IMG/VR virus record: IMGVR_UViG_3300021519_000007
Span: 1 to 64,000 of that record
DNA length: 64,000 nt
Origin: a virus
Strand: one strand, 5' to 3'
In this document: positions 6,098-62,296 of the stretch, one piece after another
Numbering within the stretch: the stretch's first letter is position 1
Layout of the letters: the number at the start of each line of letters is the position of its first letter
The notes under the pieces: generated by a model
Databases searched by the model: none
What the model was told of the DNA's origin: nothing
Seen by the model: the letters and a program-made list of their open reading frames with translations, nothing else
Made by a program: the position numbers and the translations under genes

Positions 6098-6106
6098 ATT
6101 ATACCA
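6098..6106 (-). promoter_or_regulatory. Extended -10 promoter (TGGTATAAT) upstream of the collagen fibre gene
   Basis: Perfect TGnTATAAT in the intergenic gap 6052-6129. Confidence 0.55.
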
Positions 6107-6129: not shown

Positions 6130-7038
6130 TTAAGCAATTTTGATTACGCGCAAATTTGTCGGATACTGGTCGCTGCCAGACATCCCGCCAATAGACCCTT
6201 CATAATCAAAAAATTTAGCAACTGTGTAAATAGTGTTGCCTGCGGAAAGTTGAACAAGCATTGGTATATTCATAAATTTCATGGTCCCATCGTAAGTCGC
6301 TTGAGACTGTATCCAATTTGCTCCACCGTAAACCCATTGACGATAAATGCTAGAACCGCTGTAAGAGTAAAACGCTGTTGAAACATCAATAGAGTAATAC
6401 CCTGAACTACTGACAGTCAGGGCATTTGTCTCGGAATTCCACGAGAAAATAGAACCGTTGCTATTATATTCTTCAATATACGCAATGTTTGTTTCTGTTC
6501 CAGAAGTTACCGTTTGAGGACCCTGTTGACTTAGTCTTCCGTACCAAAACTGAGTGCTAAATCCACTTGCTCCAGCAGGACCAGTTGGACCTGTGGCACC
6601 TTGAGGTCCAGTTGGTCCTGTGACCATAGAGGCCGCGCCTGTCGAACCAGTTGGACCTGTAGCACCTGTAGAGCCCGTCGGCCCTGTGACACCCTGAGCA
6701 CCAGTGGCTCCTGTCGGACCCGTAGGACCCGTAGGTCCCGTGGGGCCCGTTGGTCCCGTAACCCTTATAAAGTTTTCAGAATCACCGAGATCTAATACGT
6801 TTTGAATAGTATTACCAATAACAATATATTTGCTTATATTGTCAACTAGATCTCTTTTTACCTTGTCGTTTTGAGTATCTACATAGACATACTCTTCGCC
6901 GACCAGAGAAACATCCCCAATGTAAATTGTATCCTTAACAATTTTTTTAATTTTTACATACGAGTTATAAAAGTTATAAGACTGATTTAATATTGCCTTT
7001 CCTTCTACTTCTGCTATTGCCTCTTCATATTCTGACAT
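6130..7038 (-). CDS. Short collagen-repeat fibre protein with C1q/TNF-like C-terminal domain
   Basis: About 20 GPT/GAT triplets followed by a beta domain ([14 protein letters not shown]...[11 protein letters not shown]...LRVIKIA). Confidence 0.7.
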
Positions 7039-22299: not shown

Positions 22300-24648
22300 T
22301 TATCCGATCACTGTACCATTATGGACTTTAAAAATTGCGACTGTACTAACGTGAGTTCCCTTATAGGACCCCTTAACATGAATAAGGCCACCGTCTATAT
22401 TGCCCCACGTTTTTGCTGCTACAATACTGACAAGTTGGTGCTTGATTTGATCACCAGAATAGCGCGGCTGATGGAAAAATGAGAAGTCTTCTCTGGTAAC
22501 CGAGCCCTCAGCATTCCGCATGAAAACTTCTAAATTACCAGAGTTATCAGAATAAAGATGGAACCAGCGTGATGAAGAACCATTGGGCAGGTCTATGCGC
22601 ATATCAATGCTCACGTCTTTTCCGGCGGAAACATCGACCTGAAGATGCGTTTTACCTGACACCAACACTTCAATATTTCCAATCAGATCGGGCAGGCCGC
22701 CCGTACCTCCGCCTGTACCCCCGCCCGTGCTACCGCCCTCATTATTTGTGGGGTTTCCCGTGACAGACGCATAAACCTCGGCAAGAAAATCCTCAACCAA
22801 GTGAACTGTTGGATTAACAGCGGTATCACCAATAATACCCTGGTATGGTTGATACATTGCGAAATGAACATGCGGATAACTATACGTGTGCACATACCCT
22901 AATACGTCTCCGGCCTTTACTTTTGCGCCAGGTTTTATTCCGCTGGGTAGATCTTTTTGTAGATGGGTATAAAAAAATGTTCCATACTTAGTATGAAGAT
23001 GTATGCTTGTGCCGAAGGTTTTTCCATCCGGTACTGTGTAGTTGAATTCTCCTGAGGTTGTGCCCTGTTCATCACCGTTGCCCCACCCCGTAAGCAATCC
23101 GTCTGCAACAGCAAATACCGGCGTTCCAACCGGCCTGCCTATATCGCAAGCGTAATCAGATTGCCAGTTTCCAAATCCTCTTGAGCAGTGATCGTTTACG
23201 CCACCGCCCCATTCGCCACTTTTTGGATCGGGAACGGGATAAGCAACATCACCCGATATGGCGGGGAATCCGGCAATCCCGCCAGAGCCTCCCTGTGTGC
23301 CGATTTGTATCGTCACATAGTCTGAGCCAGTGAAACCAAGTTCTTCAGCGGCCTTGTACCAAAGATCAATCTTTGCAAGGTCGCCCTTTGACCCCTTTGA
23401 TCCTCCGAATCCAACGTCTCTCTTGTAGAGGACGAGACTCTTGTTCTTGTAGGTGACTTTTACTGGGGTAAGATAGGGAAGATCACCGAGCGCATTATAG
23501 TTGTTATCGGAGCCGTTGGTTTTGTTTGTGCTAAGTTCGGCATAAGTGTACCAGTTTGCTTTTTGGTCCAGATGGTCGCCCTTGTAACCACCATCATCAT
23601 ACGTGCCGGTGTCATTGGGGCCAAAGAATGTTGCCCACACCTCTTGGCTCTGCCCATAGTTAATGGCTGTGTTTCCAGTGTCGCCCGTGGTTCCACCAGT
23701 ACCGCTACCGCCGGATGTAAAAGCAATATTGCTTCCGAACTTGCTGGTCCAAATTTCTTCTGCCGTTTTAGCGGGAGCCGCTAGCGGATTATAAACCAGA
23801 GTTGAGATATCTCCTGTCGCCCATGAAGCAATAAGAGATTTAAAGTTGGCGGCAATGGTGCCACGCTTTGCATCAGGGAACTGATTAATAAGATCTTGAA
23901 ACGGGTCAACCTTGTGCAAGATATTGTAGTTCTGAAACTTTGTTCCACTTTTTGCAGCACGTGTAGCGGCAGCAGTGTTACCCCCGAGGGAATTAATGAT
24001 CCCACCCTTGCGGCTCGATGCCGTCATTGGGGTCTTAAGAACATCAGACCATTTGTTTGATCTTGCCTGGCCAAGCGAATAGCGATCATTCTCCGAAACA
24101 ATTTCTGCGTGGATAGTCCAGGTCGGAGACACTGTGTCTTTCGACATTACAAGATCTGGTATATCCGTCACCATTATGATGAAGGACCAGCCTCTTGCGG
24201 GGTAGCCAAACTTCAAAAAACTCTGTCGTCTCTCCTTGCCAAGAGAACCCGTTGTCCAGCCAATGTATCTCTTGAAGTAATTGTATATCTCACGTTGTTT
24301 CTTATAGTTCTGGCAGTGCCCAGTGATGACCATCTTGTCAGCGTATGTTGAAAGAATCTGAACAACTTCTCCACCGTAAGTCGAAGTCCTTCTTGTATTC
24401 ATGCCATAGCCCCACGTTATTTCATCCGCACCGGTCTCAATAATAAAGCGCCCGCCAGAGTCTGCGGGAGCACCGGCCATATGAGAAATAAAATCAGTGT
24501 TGTCATTTCTATCGACATCATTTGCTGGTTCAAAGATAAGCCGGATATCAAGTTGCTCTTCAGCAATCAGTCTTCCCTGGTCATTGAATATAGGCTTAGT
24601 CGCTGCCCTGGGATTAAGGATCTCTTTTTCGTGGAAGTAGTTTTTCAT
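22300..24648 (-). CDS. Virion-associated peptidoglycan hydrolase: tail domain + RlpA/3D-like double-psi barrel + M23 peptidase
   Basis: WATFFG...LPYLTPVKVTY...RDVG...IDLW (DPBB); DIGRPVGTPVFAVADG...YTHL...VKAGDVLG...PHVHF (M23). Gly/Thr linkers separate the domains. Confidence 0.8.
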   Translation of the reverse strand: MKNYFHEKEILNPRAATKPIFNDQGRLIAEEQLDIRLIFEPANDVDRNDNTDFISHMAGAPADSGGRFIIETGADEITWGYGMNTRRTSTYGGEVVQILSTYADKMVITGHCQNYKKQREIYNYFKRYIGWTTGSLGKERRQSFLKFGYPARGWSFIIMVTDIPDLVMSKDTVSPTWTIHAEIVSENDRYSLGQARSNKWSDVLKTPMTASSRKGGIINSLGGNTAAATRAAKSGTKFQNYNILHKVDPFQDLINQFPDAKRGTIAANFKSLIASWATGDISTLVYNPLAAPAKTAEEIWTSKFGSNIAFTSGGSGTGGTTGDTGNTAINYGQSQEVWATFFGPNDTGTYDDGGYKGDHLDQKANWYTYAELSTNKTNGSDNNYNALGDLPYLTPVKVTYKNKSLVLYKRDVGFGGSKGSKGDLAKIDLWYKAAEELGFTGSDYVTIQIGTQGGSGGIAGFPAISGDVAYPVPDPKSGEWGGGVNDHCSRGFGNWQSDYACDIGRPVGTPVFAVADGLLTGWGNGDEQGTTSGEFNYTVPDGKTFGTSIHLHTKYGTFFYTHLQKDLPSGIKPGAKVKAGDVLGYVHTYSYPHVHFAMYQPYQGIIGDTAVNPTVHLVEDFLAEVYASVTGNPTNNEGGSTGGGTGGGTGGLPDLIGNIEVLVSGKTHLQVDVSAGKDVSIDMRIDLPNGSSSRWFHLYSDNSGNLEVFMRNAEGSVTREDFSFFHQPRYSGDQIKHQLVSIVAAKTWGNIDGGLIHVKGSYKGTHVSTVAIFKVHNGTVIG

Positions 24649-58449: not shown

Positions 58450-58760
58450 TTATCAAAAAAGTCATTTGAGGGATCCTCGGACCAGAAGCGGTAGATCACA
58501 GAGAACTCCTCGTCTTGACCAAAGCGCCAGCCCTCAGGGCACGACAAATCAATAGCGCTAGACAGATCGGCTAGGAGAAAGTCTTTATTGTCATTGGATG
58601 AGTTTTCAATGTTCTTGAACACGTCACTATAGTTCGACTGTAAAGTGTTCCAACGTTTTACGTCCACACCATTAAGCACATCAGACATCTTTTGAATAAC
58701 AGAATTTATACCGCTATCTAAATCAAAAGACACATCTTTGAATTCCTCAATGCTATCCAT
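58446..58760 (-). CDS. Hypothetical acidic protein (start revised)
   Basis: MDSIEEF start overlaps the upstream stop. Confidence 0.5.
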   Translation of the reverse strand: MDSIEEFKDVSFDLDSGINSVIQKMSDVLNGVDVKRWNTLQSNYSDVFKNIENSSNDNKDFLLADLSSAIDLSCPEGWRFGQDEEFSVIYRFWSEDPSNDFFDN

Positions 58761-59217
58761 CGAGAAGGTCAGCCCAGTTCTTCTCCTCATGGTGCTCAAA
58801 AAGTTCAACAATTGCTGCTAAAGAGATATTGTTTGTAGGTTGCTCAATAGCCCAAGTGAATACATTGTTATGATATTCTTCACGAAATACATAGAATCTT
58901 ATAGCAATCGGATAGGGGACACTGAACACTTCAATCAATCCCCAGAGACAATACATTTCATTGCCACCAATAGTGACGTTCTCTTTATGAACAATTCTCA
59001 CAGGAGTATGAACAACAGCGTCTCTAACGATACGGATATCTGTATCAAACGGAGCACCATTAGACCATGCTTTATTTGCCATTCTTAATGCTTCAATAAA
59101 TTCAAGGCAAGAATATTTTACAGTTCCAGTTTCTTTTTCATCCACAAAAACAAAGTCATCAAAATTTAGATAATCAAATTTGTCGTCGTCGATGATTCCC
59201 ATAGTAACCTCTTTCAT
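58753..59217 (-). CDS. Hypothetical protein
   Basis: 154-aa ORF in an AT-rich patch. Confidence 0.55.
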   Translation of the reverse strand: MKEVTMGIIDDDKFDYLNFDDFVFVDEKETGTVKYSCLEFIEALRMANKAWSNGAPFDTDIRIVRDAVVHTPVRIVHKENVTIGGNEMYCLWGLIEVFSVPYPIAIRFYVFREEYHNNVFTWAIEQPTNNISLAAIVELFEHHEEKNWADLLDG

Positions 59218-59240
59218 TAATATGTGGGAATCGGTTAGTT

Positions 59241-59360
59241 AGGAGCCCCGGTTCCCACCCGGCAATTATCGGCTTGCCTACCGCCTCACACGGTAGCACA
59301 GGCCGCGTAGAGACGCGACCATCTGACGGTCTACGTCCCGGATGCTGACCGGGGACTCCT
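59241..59360 (-). ncRNA. Candidate structured non-coding RNA (about 120 nt)
   Basis: Closing helix AGGAG(T)CCCCGGT/ACCGGGGCTCCT, inner helix CATCCGG/CCGGGTG, hairpins GGTCGCGT-CTCT-ACGCGGCC and CTACCGT-GTGAG-GCGGTAG. TGGTATAAT lies at 59361-59369. Confidence 0.55.
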
Positions 59361-59371
59361 ATTATACCAAT

Positions 59372-59830
59372 TTATTTCTTTAAATCAAGATATGGTGCTT
59401 GTGATAGTGCAACGCCTGTACAACCCCAGGCATACACGCCGTAACGATTGACGATCCTCTGTGCTTGGATCATCTGTTGACGTGGTGTCGCCCTATCTGC
59501 GGTCGGAGCCATATCCGTTCCAGCAATACCTTTCTCATGCCACAGGGGTTCCCAAATACCCAAGCCCCCGGGGTAACTTCCGTTCCTCGTTTGGTGCCAG
59601 TCAATACCCCATTTGTATCTCTTTCCACTCGCACCGGCTGGAGCGGGCTGCTCACATCTACCGATAGCGATAAAGAATCTCCAATTAGGGACAATCTTTC
59701 CTATTCTCATGTGCTGTTTACCGTGCCTAATGCCTCCTCGATATTCCGGCAATGGACGAGCCAATGCTGTAGGCACCACTAGCATAACAATAACAAAAGC
59801 CAATATTAGTTTCTTAATCATTTTAAACAC
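59372..59830 (-). CDS. Secreted resuscitation-promoting-factor (Rpf)-like transglycosylase
   Basis: Signal peptide; IGRCE (catalytic Glu), NGSYPGGLGI...W, APTADRATPRQQMIQAQRI...YGVYAWGC match the Rpf core. Confidence 0.8.
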   Translation of the reverse strand: MFKMIKKLILAFVIVMLVVPTALARPLPEYRGGIRHGKQHMRIGKIVPNWRFFIAIGRCEQPAPAGASGKRYKWGIDWHQTRNGSYPGGLGIWEPLWHEKGIAGTDMAPTADRATPRQQMIQAQRIVNRYGVYAWGCTGVALSQAPYLDLKK

Positions 59831-60251
59831 CCACTATTCTCGCGCAGGTCCAGTCGCTCCAGCCACGCGTTTTGTAGAAGTAATACGCGATCCTTGTGTT
59901 CCAGACAGGATCAAATATGTTCGCTCCAAGCCTCCACCCCTCTGAGTTGTAGGTTCGGTTGATCTGAAACAATCCGTAGTCCGAAGTCCTCGAGACGGCA
60001 TACGGATTCCACACGGACTCGCACGAAACGATCCGCATAGCGTTACCAGCCTGCGATCCAAAACCAATGCGGACGACGCACTCCAGTTCAGCCTTCGTCC
60101 AGTGAGCCGGACGATGGTTGCACGCGTACATCCTTTGCGTTTGGATCTTCTTCTTGTGCGGGTTGGGAATCCCCATCCCCGCTGTTGCTGTCCCAGTCGC
60201 AACCACTGTCGAACATATAAACACTGCGATAAATGTTAGTAGTACCTTCAC
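59823..60251 (-). CDS. Secreted lysozyme-like / SLT transglycosylase (start revised to GTG 60251)
   Basis: AGGAGG RBS; signal peptide; IVSCESVWNPYA...DYGLFQIN...FDPVWNTRIA...GWSDWTC. Confidence 0.85.
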   Translation of the reverse strand: MKVLLTFIAVFICSTVVATGTATAGMGIPNPHKKKIQTQRMYACNHRPAHWTKAELECVVRIGFGSQAGNAMRIVSCESVWNPYAVSRTSDYGLFQINRTYNSEGWRLGANIFDPVWNTRIAYYFYKTRGWSDWTCARIVGV

Positions 60252-60427
60252 GGGCAACCTCCTGCTTGTACCGTCCCATTCTGGGTCCCCCCACGAAACG
60301 GACACAAGCGGGGGTTAGTCACACGGTTTTGCGTGACGGGCGTCTTCTGCGGTTAGGATTTTGAGGCTGGGTTCCAGCCCCTTGTCGGTCTCGCTACGCC
60401 CCCTGCTCGGTGGTGTCTCTTATTATC
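60252..60427 (-). promoter_or_regulatory. Structured 5' leader, candidate c-di-AMP (ydaO)-like riboswitch variant
   Basis: GATAAT -10 box; helix CGAGC(A)GGGGG/CCCCCGCTTG; two inner hairpins; ydaO-like words CCCGTCA, CTAACCCCCG and GGGGGACCCA; competing helix next to the RBS. Confidence 0.35.
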
Positions 60428-60463
60428 GTGCCGGAGTATGGCTTAAATAGGCCATTCCGGACA

Positions 60464-62296
60464 TTAGAACTCTCCCATGGAGAGTCTGTTGAGGAGATCA
60501 GACAGGATGTGTTCTTCATCCTTTTGTGTCCCATCCACCACGGCAGAAATTATAGCACGCTTGTGGTCGATCAATTCGGCCAGATACTCATCAATTGTCC
60601 CCGCAGCCATGAGGTAGTAGCAGGAAACAGGATTCTCCTGCCCTGAGCGATGGCAACGATCCTCGGCTTGGTGGTGTTTAGTCGGAGTCCACGTCAACTC
60701 AAGGAAGGCGACGTTGGAGCAGACATGCTGCCACCCGTCGATCCCCTCGGCAGCGGCGTCGATGTTGGCGACAACAACACGAACACTGTCGTCCTCGGAG
60801 AAGCGGTCGATTGCTGCCTGCCTTGCATCCGATCCCATGCCGCCCACAACACGGACGGCCTTGGGGCCAAGGTGTTTGCACACCATGTCCACTGTGTTGC
60901 GGTGGCTGCAGAACAGGACGAGTTTCTCGTCAGATGTGAGGAAGTCGTCGATCCATTCAAGCGCAGCATTGATCTTTCCACGGGCACATACTTGACGCAG
61001 TGCGTTGAGTTTTGTGATTGCAATTGCCGCCTTTGCACGGGCGACCTTTGCATCGACCTCATGCTGCCAAGCGTTTTGAGCCTCGACCGGCGTAAGAGTA
61101 GACAGATGCTCATTGAATTTTTGATCCGAATTAACCTGCGAACGAATCCAAACAGCGATGTCATCTCGAACCCGATTATACTCGGGGCGGTTGGTGATCT
61201 CCAGCGGAATGGAGATGCGCTCCTTCGGAGGCAGTTCTGTAAGGACATCCTCTTTGCGTCTACGGATCAAGATGCCACTCCTGCGCAGGCGAGTATTCAA
61301 CTCGAACAAATTACTTGCTCCGCGGGTGTCCCAACCGTAACCGTTGTAGGAAGGGTTACAATAGCGCTCAACAAATGTCCAGTTTCTACCGCCTGTGATT
61401 TCATTGAGGCGGCCAATGATTGACAACTGAGACATAAGGTCGATTGGACTGTTTGTCAGGGGTGTGCCCGACATCGCAATCCTGATTTCTATCTGGCTGG
61501 CAAGGATCGCCGATGCTTTGGCCCGCTTGGACTTACCGTTCTTAATGAAATGCGCCTCATCAAAAACAACGGCCTTACATCTCAGGCGCTGGATCTCAGC
61601 GACCCAACCAGCAAGGATGTCATAGTTGATTATGACAATTTTTGTATTGCCGGGAATCCTTTTGCTCGTGCGGCCCGAACAGACAAAGATCAAGTCGTTA
61701 GAAATGGAGGGAAAGAATCTATTTATCTGACGAACCCAACCCATTTTGATTGAAGCGGGGCAGATGACTACAACGGGGTATGCCTGCTCCACTGCCACAG
61801 CAGCGAGAGCGCAGAGCGTTTTGCCCGTCCCCATCTCGTCACCTATGTAGACCCTACGGTTACGAACGATCCAGTCAACCGCAGCCTTCTGATAGTTGCG
61901 GAGTGATCCAGCCAAACCGGGGACAATAATGTCCGGCCCCTCTTGGGCGACAGACAGTTCCTGGTTCTCTTCTTGCTGCTTCTGACGTTCTTCTTCAGCC
62001 TGCAGGATCTGCTCAATGAGCCGGTCAGCAGAAGCGTTACGCTTGAAACCATACTCTTCGATGATCTCTAGCATTGGCTCAATTGCCTCACGCTCGGCAG
62101 GAATAACCCAAGCGCTAATCATCTTGTCGCCACGGGGGTAGAAGTTCGGGTGCATTTTCACACCCCGAATATTTCTTTTGAGATCACGCAGGCGAGCAGC
62201 AATCTTGCTTGTCTCATCTGTCGATAGATCATCTACGGCAATACCAAAGCCGTTCCCGCTTCTAAGCGCACCGAAATGCTTGAATGGTCTAGACAA
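60464..62296 (-). CDS. SNF2/SMARCAL1-like helicase (start revised to TTG 62296)
   Basis: GDEMGTGKT, DEAH, SGTP, LIRRRKEDVLTELPPK, QAEDRCHRSGQ; GAAAGGAG RBS before the TTG. Confidence 0.92.
   Translation of the reverse strand: MSRPFKHFGALRSGNGFGIAVDDLSTDETSKIAARLRDLKRNIRGVKMHPNFYPRGDKMISAWVIPAEREAIEPMLEIIEEYGFKRNASADRLIEQILQAEEERQKQQEENQELSVAQEGPDIIVPGLAGSLRNYQKAAVDWIVRNRRVYIGDEMGTGKTLCALAAVAVEQAYPVVVICPASIKMGWVRQINRFFPSISNDLIFVCSGRTSKRIPGNTKIVIINYDILAGWVAEIQRLRCKAVVFDEAHFIKNGKSKRAKASAILASQIEIRIAMSGTPLTNSPIDLMSQLSIIGRLNEITGGRNWTFVERYCNPSYNGYGWDTRGASNLFELNTRLRRSGILIRRRKEDVLTELPPKERISIPLEITNRPEYNRVRDDIAVWIRSQVNSDQKFNEHLSTLTPVEAQNAWQHEVDAKVARAKAAIAITKLNALRQVCARGKINAALEWIDDFLTSDEKLVLFCSHRNTVDMVCKHLGPKAVRVVGGMGSDARQAAIDRFSEDDSVRVVVANIDAAAEGIDGWQHVCSNVAFLELTWTPTKHHQAEDRCHRSGQENPVSCYYLMAAGTIDEYLAELIDHKRAIISAVVDGTQKDEEHILSDLLNRLSMGEF

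Follow-up and report, generated by a model that had tools for sequence, protein, structure and literature searches.

What does a bacteriophage use two predicted secreted cell-wall enzymes for when they are encoded among its replication genes, behind a structured RNA and far from its tail enzyme? The question is raised by positions 59,235 to 60,427 of the stretch analysed here (the window), which comprises the first 64 kb (64,000 nucleotides, nt) of the 75,997-bp IMG/VR virus record IMGVR_UViG_3300021519_000007 (G000), estimated by CheckV to be ~48% complete. The locus holds two minus-strand genes, the first for a lysozyme-like and the second for an Rpf-like protein, with one structured RNA before them and another after them. 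A first-pass annotation, made from the letters of the DNA, had read this arrangement as a regulated "wake-up" cassette by which an infected cell remodels its wall or rouses dormant neighbours. The reading that we favour, at a probability of roughly 0.5, is that the pair forms an accessory operon of a lake-water actinobacterial myophage, whose two predicted Sec-exported glycan-strand cutters would act as wall helpers.

Two predicted exported enzymes

Gene 1 (positions 59823–60251, minus strand) encodes a predicted exported enzyme of the lysozyme superfamily, 142 amino acids (aa) in length, as indicated by Pfam, a PDB profile search, AlphaFold/Foldseek and a homologue alignment. Its open frame spans 59823–60305 on the minus strand, and gene callers start it at a GTG at 60251, 6 nt after the Shine-Dalgarno (SD) sequence AGGAGG (60258–60263). 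Pfam matched the product to SLT (PF01464; E = 1.3e-7, 31.6 bits against a cut-off of 21.3) and to SLT_3 (3.7e-5). The model match is accompanied by the E-S catalytic motif of SLT/GH23 enzymes, and the catalytic Glu of CES is invariant among the 24 homologues recovered from metagenomes. The Asp of the family motif S/T-D-Y/H-G-L-F-Q-I-N, which reads SDYGLFQIN in the window, is kept in at least 90% of the family, and in alignments of 20 homologues for each of the two genes the key motif residues were invariant. Searched against the PDB, the family profile matched only c-type lysozymes of animals, weakly (E from 7e-4), and the Pfam family Lys (PF00062) gave no match at E ≤ 0.1. The AlphaFold model had a predicted local distance difference test score (pLDDT) of 85, and its Foldseek matches were weak, all of lysozyme fold and a mixture of GH22, GH23 and Rpf proteins. 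Gene 1 may belong to a bacterial-virus branch lying between GH22 and GH23. A tblastn search of cultured phages with gene 1 returned no match.

Gene 2 (59372–59821, minus strand) encodes a predicted exported, divergent Rpf-domain enzyme of 149 aa, identified by Pfam, alignment, Foldseek, a family profile and hhalign. Its open frame covers 59372–59830 on the minus strand, with the gene-caller start at an ATG at 59821. The Pfam match to Transglycosylas/Rpf (PF06737) lies barely above the threshold (29.0 bits against a cut-off of 27, E = 1.7e-6). Across 20 of its homologues (40 were found in metagenomes), C56-E57, C134, GGLG, AT(P)..QM..AQ and AWGC are invariant, so that both the Cys preceding the catalytic Glu and the second conserved Cys of the Rpf disulfide pair are present. 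The AlphaFold model (pLDDT 80) retrieved RpfB/RpfE as its top five Foldseek matches in the PDB (probability 0.77–0.98, TM (target) 0.27–0.73), at E-values of just 0.15–0.85; the family sequence profile found nothing in the PDB, and the fold search was needed. Among 1.84 billion representatives, the same profile pulled proteins with the RpfB-type architecture DUF348-G5-Transglycosylas (E = 1e-10 to 1e-7). Because its profile retrieves proteins of this canonical architecture, gene 2 is a true but divergent member of the Rpf family. The divergence is considerable: only 17 of the 1.84 billion representatives were reached at E ≤ 1e-10, an insertion separates the catalytic Glu from the GGLG motif, and no close relatives of the family were found in 185,579 prokaryote genomes. 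In cultured phages, tblastn matched only a tape-measure protein (phage Boilgate) and one unannotated gut phage. As far as the searched sequences go, this Rpf branch is confined to phage-like metagenome contigs, mostly from lakes. A possible fused or longer form of the Rpf-like protein, a single 369-aa call, was rejected as an over-extended open reading frame (ORF).

The core of the first-pass description, an SLT/lysozyme-like gene beside one with an Rpf core, is borne out by the two above-threshold Pfam matches and by the motifs it had quoted. The same description called the genes overlapping, which needs qualification: with the gene-caller starts they abut at TAAAATG, and an 8-nt overlap arises only with an alternative GTG start. 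They are probably translationally coupled. Both proteins begin with a short basic, K-rich stretch followed by a hydrophobic core and an AxA site (ATA before G in gene 1, ALA before RP in gene 2); in gene 2 the n-, h- and c-regions are typical and the AxA site is conserved in homologues. These are the only export-type N-termini in the 76-kb record, in line with the signal peptides first proposed, and both proteins are predicted to be exported by Sec. Judging from their family membership, both would cut glycan strands. Homologues of either gene are nearly all unnamed or labelled "hypothetical protein", and many lie on contigs of 40–138 kb; a DNA search of cultured phage records with the locus gave no match.

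The pair is flanked by an SNF2 helicase gene upstream and a dUTPase gene downstream. No transmembrane ORF or holin-like gene adjoins it in G000; neither an adjacent holin nor a late-gene position, the marks of a lysis cassette, was found. The tail lysin is a 782-aa tail protein of the virion module with an M23 peptidase (22300–24648), encoded 35 kb away, and the accessory position described in the first pass, distant from the tail lysin and lacking a neighbouring holin, therefore stands. The record's only other small membrane-protein candidate is encoded just past the end of the window, ~5 kb upstream of the cassette: a 49-aa ORF (G000 64900–65049, minus strand) that combines a basic tail with a long hydrophobic segment.

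The phage, its relatives and the role of the pair

Nearly every large ORF in the window lies on the minus strand, and the window has a GC content of ~47–50%. PHROG and Pfam scans identified a virion module with a contractile tail, sheath, baseplate wedge, collagen-like fibres, major head protein and protease, and upstream of it a set of replication and nucleotide genes comprising the SNF2 helicase, dUTPase, an HD/CCA-like enzyme, HNH, Ku, a pyrimidine-dimer glycosylase and GP88. Actinobacterial phages of 135–165 kb, namely Mycobacterium cluster C-type phages, Rhodococcus E3 and Finch, and Gordonia Skog, have major head proteins 52–54% identical to that of this phage; Mycobacterium phages account for 209 of the 227 matching records. 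The phage is a lake-water relative of the cluster C/E3-type actinobacterial myoviruses. Since its head-protein relatives are actinobacterial and near-identical DNA was found in lake and freshwater metagenomes of five further studies, the host is very probably a freshwater actinobacterium. No RNA run was listed as containing the stretch. Across the DNA contigs of four further runs from lakes or fresh water there were 7 single-nucleotide polymorphisms in total, and the 2-kb locus differed by at most 5 letters across studies, apart from a cluster in the leader in one lake-water run, described below.

Within the same myovirus lineage, the locus always lies between the SNF2 helicase and dUTPase genes, and its first gene varies. 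A lysozyme-like first gene occurs in the window and in the related locus L010, and also in L005, there with a non-helicase gene upstream; L003 carries a lysozyme-like and Rpf-like pair in a different context. In L002 (5472–6080, plus strand) and L004 (5343–5966, plus strand), the lysozyme-like gene is swapped for one encoding a different secreted protein of 200 aa. This protein was negative in Pfam, and its protein atlas neighbours are RlpA-like double-psi beta-barrel (DPBB) lytic transglycosylases (score 0.92), which we treat as a lead to a putative RlpA/DPBB-like partner. In L006 to L009 the Rpf-like gene stands alone, with no partner. In L004 only, a 31-aa ORF (6335–6430, plus strand) with one transmembrane segment and a Lys/Arg-rich tail sits between the Rpf-like gene and the downstream RNA, and is a holin-like lead.

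The relative G003, a complete phage genome (89 kb, 60% GC, with terminal repeats), carries the two genes unlinked, the lysozyme-like gene at 5.2 kb and the Rpf-like gene at 70.9 kb, and also encodes a holin-like transmembrane protein and a PG_binding/CHAP endolysin at 67.7–68.8 kb. Within 5 kb of this genome (L163:7666–12213) lie the holin-like gene, the PG_binding/CHAP endolysin, a metallophosphoesterase, the Rpf-like gene and a serine recombinase; the Rpf-like gene adjoins the recombinase on the same strand, a position typical of lysogeny-expressed genes. Synteny, which the first pass had proposed as a check on the cassette, gives a divided answer: the helicase-dUTPase position is constant in the lineage, but the partner is swapped in L002 and L004, missing in L006 to L009, and unlinked in G003. 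Related cultured myoviruses could not be used for the comparison, because no counterpart of the SNF2 helicase was found in them.

According to the reading that we favour, a −10 promoter belonging to the operon itself would drive early or middle transcription, and the leader would gate translation of gene 1, with the SD sequence hidden or freed by alternative pairing of a C-run and a G-run. The host Sec system would export both proteins during infection, so that the infected cell's own wall is nicked from outside the membrane. As helpers, the enzymes would loosen or turn over the wall, keeping a growth-like state, pre-weakening the wall for lysis, or both. The pair would not be the principal holin-controlled endolysin of the phage, and an effect on dormant neighbours would be a by-product of released enzyme or muropeptides.

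An accessory character is suggested by the variable or absent partner, the unlinked genes and separate endolysin of G003, the precedent of the Rhodococcus phage Trina (described below), the leader and the lack of an adjoining holin. A role in host physiology is made plausible by published observations: host rpf genes are up-regulated during Rhodococcus phage infection, a finding accompanied by the suggestion that phages switch these genes on so that the host does not become dormant (PMC10986025), and some phages infect Rpf-deficient mycobacteria less well (meeting report, PMC12908700). The phage of the WC1 RNA-seq paper has no Rpf of its own, and that work thus provides no timing information for a phage-encoded Rpf gene.

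Several points weigh against this reading. No other free endolysin domain (Amidase_2, GH25, CHAP, NlpC/P60 or PG_binding_1) was found in the 76 kb of G000 or in its partial relatives G001 and G002, in a moderately sensitive genome search whose negatives are weak because it missed the CHAP domain that hmmscan found in G003. Since the available ~48% of the genome yielded no further free endolysin, the two enzymes could themselves make up the endolysin system. The analogy with G003 and Trina is indirect, both being only distantly related to this phage, and the leader structure rests on two to three sequences.

The foremost alternative, which we consider possible though unlikely, is that the two proteins are lysis enzymes, namely Sec-exported or signal-anchor-release (SAR) endolysins that would build up outside the membrane and be set free once its potential is lost through the action of a holin or pinholin whose gene lies elsewhere. 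Other phages of Gram-positive bacteria are known to have exported endolysins; the search of G000, G001 and G002 described above yielded only the tail-associated M23 enzyme; the hydrophobic segment of gene 1 is rich in Gly, Ala, Ser and Thr, as in SAR domains; and the 31-aa transmembrane ORF of L004, with its charged tail, comes right after the Rpf gene. This alternative fits less well with a pair that has no holin-like gene beside it in this phage, lies among replication and nucleotide genes behind a translational-control leader, and has a partner gene that is variable or absent, and with the coexistence of the G003 homologues and of the secreted Rpf of Trina with separate endolysins. The first-pass label of a non-lysis module is thus supported indirectly by G003 and Trina, while a role as Sec-exported endolysins would also suit a genome of which ~48% is in hand.

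The wake-up function proposed at first appears improbable to us. Here, released Rpf, with its partner, would resuscitate dormant neighbours or keep the infected cell from dormancy, thereby enlarging the productive host pool. Small freshwater actinobacteria are often slow-growing, and gene 2 has a true Rpf-family domain with intact catalytic Glu and Cys pair, in a protein predicted to be exported and stand-alone like cellular Rpfs. The reported phage dependence on host Rpfs (PMC12908700) and the dormancy-avoidance idea (PMC10986025) also count in its favour. On the other hand, gene 2 belongs to a divergent branch with few close representatives, an insertion between Glu and GGLG and no close cellular homologue among the prokaryote genomes searched; that neighbouring cells might gain from a lytic infection makes a weak case for selection; and muralytic helpers account for the same features.

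That the proteins are virion-associated entry enzymes piercing the wall, like the Rpf motifs first described in tape-measure proteins (PMC1796659), is barely credible in spite of the tblastn match of gene 2 to the Boilgate tape-measure protein: packaging is argued against by the pair being the only proteins with export-type segments in 76 kb, these are small stand-alone proteins whose cleavable-type signal peptides would direct them out of the cytoplasm, where virions assemble, and their genes are not part of the structural module, in which an M23 tail enzyme is already encoded.

The structured leader and the downstream RNA

The two RNAs are the most original parts of the locus. The 212 nt that separate the helicase stop (60464) from gene 1 contain, in order, a palindromic hairpin, a −10 box and the leader. 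The candidate −10 box of the cassette, GATAAT (60422–60427, minus strand), is aligned with TATAAT in L010 and lies ~7 nt before the start of the conserved leader, in agreement with the separate −10 box noted in the first pass. More distally, the 3' end of the SNF2 helicase gene contains a further candidate promoter of the cassette, the extended −10 box TGCTATAAT (60549–60557, minus strand).

The structured 5' leader (60252–60415, minus strand, ~165 nt) was recognized by its folding energy, conservation and compensatory pairs. Compared with shuffled sequences, its fold z-score is −3.8 on the coding strand and −1.1 on the other strand. The leader can be aligned over its full length with L010 and over its 3' half only with L005, so the structured leader of the original description holds up. 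In the two-sequence alignment, all of its 41 predicted pairs are kept (100% paired), 6 of them by compensatory changes, compared with 0–1 in slid controls. Hairpins are predicted at 60363–60381 and 60318–60337, and in the last helix the anti-SD sequence AACCCCC (60310–60316) pairs with the SD sequence of gene 1, which reads GGGGG in L010. The C-run could instead pair with an internal G-run, and the layout would be that of a classic translational switch. L002 and L004, which have the other partner gene, contain 45–67 nt at this position and no leader. A search of viral contigs with the leader pattern recovered only the already known L005 contig. One lake-water run showed three clustered substitutions at 60343–60346, where the leader is predicted to have an unpaired stretch and the end of a helix, together with one substitution at 60435, in the hairpin after the helicase gene.

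Neither RNA matched any Rfam family, in the window at the gathering threshold or in 59100–60600 at E ≤ 10, and only tRNAs were found; the homologous places in L002, L004, L005, L010 and L021 gave no match for either RNA at E ≤ 1. The analogy first drawn with the c-di-AMP riboswitch of Streptomyces rpfA is accordingly unsupported, as no family, ydaO (RF00379) included, matches the leader.

Directly after the stop of gene 2 comes a candidate promoter of the next unit (59361–59388, minus strand), with the −35 box TTGATT, a 16-nt spacer and the extended −10 box TGGTATAAT (TGgTATAAT), matching 10 of 12 consensus positions plus the TG. The extended −10 box is kept at the same place in L002, L004, L005 and L010. 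A pattern search of the window for TGNTAYAAT found 11 occurrences against 3.4 expected, several of them in intergenic gaps; 8 of the 11 are on the coding (minus) strand, at 6098, 18164, 34864, 44258, 54781, 59361, 60549 and 62753. This extended −10 box is probably the main promoter type of the phage.

About 7 nt past the extended −10 box begins a separate, unclassified RNA of ~120 nt (59235–59360, minus strand), supported by its fold z-score, covariation and a covariance model search. Its predicted folding energy is −76 kcal/mol with a fold z-score of −6.1, and it is 75–77% identical at the nucleotide level in L002, L004 and L005, while the flanks do not align. It comprises four helices with 36 pairs, which are 97% paired across the alignment with 6 compensatory changes, again compared with 0–1 in slid controls. 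A natural polymorphism at 59357 turns an A-U pair into G-U.

The covariance model matched a first group at E = 1e-25 to 1e-29 and a second group at 0.003–0.025. The second group (L021:7910–8031, plus strand; L020:445–566, minus strand; L023:13069–13190; L024:13073–13165) resides on high-GC phage contigs, ~70 nt upstream of a gene for an HNH-endonuclease/large-terminase fusion and with no Rpf gene near; it has in common with the first group the core hairpin GACCGUYAGAKGGUC, the P5 helix and the 3' strand. Since the RNA has its own promoter and occurs without an Rpf gene in other phages, it is independent of the cassette. The picture of a cassette bracketed by two RNAs therefore survives in part: the downstream structure is stable and conserved, but by its promoter and distribution it is best described as an independent, mobile, unclassified phage RNA and not as the 3' border of the cassette.

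No U-tract follows the RNA in G000, and transcription should therefore continue into the next genes. The first of these (58753–59202, minus strand; from the ORF lists) encodes a protein of ~149 aa with no known domain and no Pfam or PHROG match. Its homologues follow the RNA in L002 and L004, and one is present in L010; it is absent in L005, where the genes after the RNA differ. L010, the nearest relative at the protein level, retains the extended −10 box TGTGTATAAT after its Rpf gene and lacks the RNA (locus 2119–2476); in its place lie 358 nt that are unrelated and hold a possible 64-aa ORF. Positions 2300–2440 of L010 (141 nt) folded no better than shuffled sequences.

Because the RNA is promoter-proximal and lies ahead of long co-directional gene arrays, one may speculate that it is a leader or an antitermination-type element. 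A pattern built on its 17-base core gave 84 matches in 185,579 prokaryote genomes, about the number that we estimate for chance, and nhmmer extended none of them past the core; two further patterns found no new members in viral contigs. A bolder proposal covering both RNAs is a long shot: the leader would be a new ligand- or signal-sensing switch gating a pair that resets dormancy or wall growth of slow-growing freshwater actinobacteria, and the neighbouring RNA would represent a new class of actinophage regulatory RNA, for instance a processive antitermination or operon leader, placed also before terminase genes in unrelated high-GC phages.

Comparison with known systems

Secreted Rpfs recur in actinophages and offer a direct way to ask whether phages interfere with the dormancy or wall growth of their hosts. 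To these the present example adds a divergent phage Rpf branch, interchangeable glycan-cutting partners (lysozyme-like or RlpA-like), a conserved leader able to mask a ribosome-binding site, and, adjacent to it, an unclassified structured RNA that unrelated phages also carry. Should the enzymes prove active on freshwater actinobacteria, they might be tried as aids for culturing hard-to-grow freshwater lineages.

The first description of Rpf motifs in phages concerned the tape-measure proteins of mycobacteriophages (Piuri and Hatfull 2006, PMC1796659), and a canonical Rpf query against cultured phages returned Rpf-domain matches in 110 records, mostly tape-measure proteins. The Rpf-type motif 1 of those proteins resembles gene 2 in being an Rpf-related muralytic sequence in an actinophage; it is embedded in a virion entry protein, whereas gene 2 encodes a free, predicted exported protein. 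With cellular Rpfs (Micrococcus luteus Rpf; M. tuberculosis RpfA-E; PF06737), gene 2 shares the lysozyme-like fold, the Cys-Glu, the second Cys near the C-terminus, a predicted secretion signal and a catalytic core of ~70–100 aa. It differs from them in being phage-encoded, in having no LysM, G5 or DUF348 accessory domains, and in an extra loop after the catalytic Glu.

The RpfB-RipA partnership provides a parallel for an Rpf that is encoded next to, and presumably acts with, a second wall hydrolase. The partner in the window is a predicted glycan cutter (lysozyme/SLT-like, or RlpA/DPBB-like in L002 and L004), unlike the endopeptidase of the RpfB-RipA type. As for regulation, the ydaO (c-di-AMP) riboswitch upstream of Streptomyces rpfA is likewise a long structured leader before an rpf-type gene; the phage leader has no sequence or structure match to RF00379, and its control point is apparently SD sequestration.

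The closest parallels are the stand-alone Rpf genes of cultured phages, for which we found no characterization of the proteins in the literature searched: gp044 of the Rhodococcus phage Trina (annotated "transglycosylase"), gp46 of the Rhodococcus phage Grayson and gp182 of the Streptomyces phage LuckySocke. Like gene 2, they encode small proteins with a predicted signal peptide and an Rpf domain, among replication and nucleotide genes and apart from lysin A. In Trina, for example, gp044 combines a Sec signal peptide with a textbook Rpf domain; the genes around it include those for a helicase, a methyltransferase and ThyX, and lysin A is encoded separately, as gp061. hhalign joined the gene 2 family to Trina gp044 at 93% (E = 2.5e-7), with 38% identity over 66 columns; gp044 is canonical (AECESGGNW...GGLQFS), whereas gene 2 is divergent (CEQPAPA..., the insertion, then GGLGIW). 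Stand-alone secreted Rpf genes thus already exist in cultured actinophages, and on present sequence comparisons the window pair is an uncharacterized variant of such genes, set apart from the Trina type by its lysozyme-like partner gene and its structured leader.

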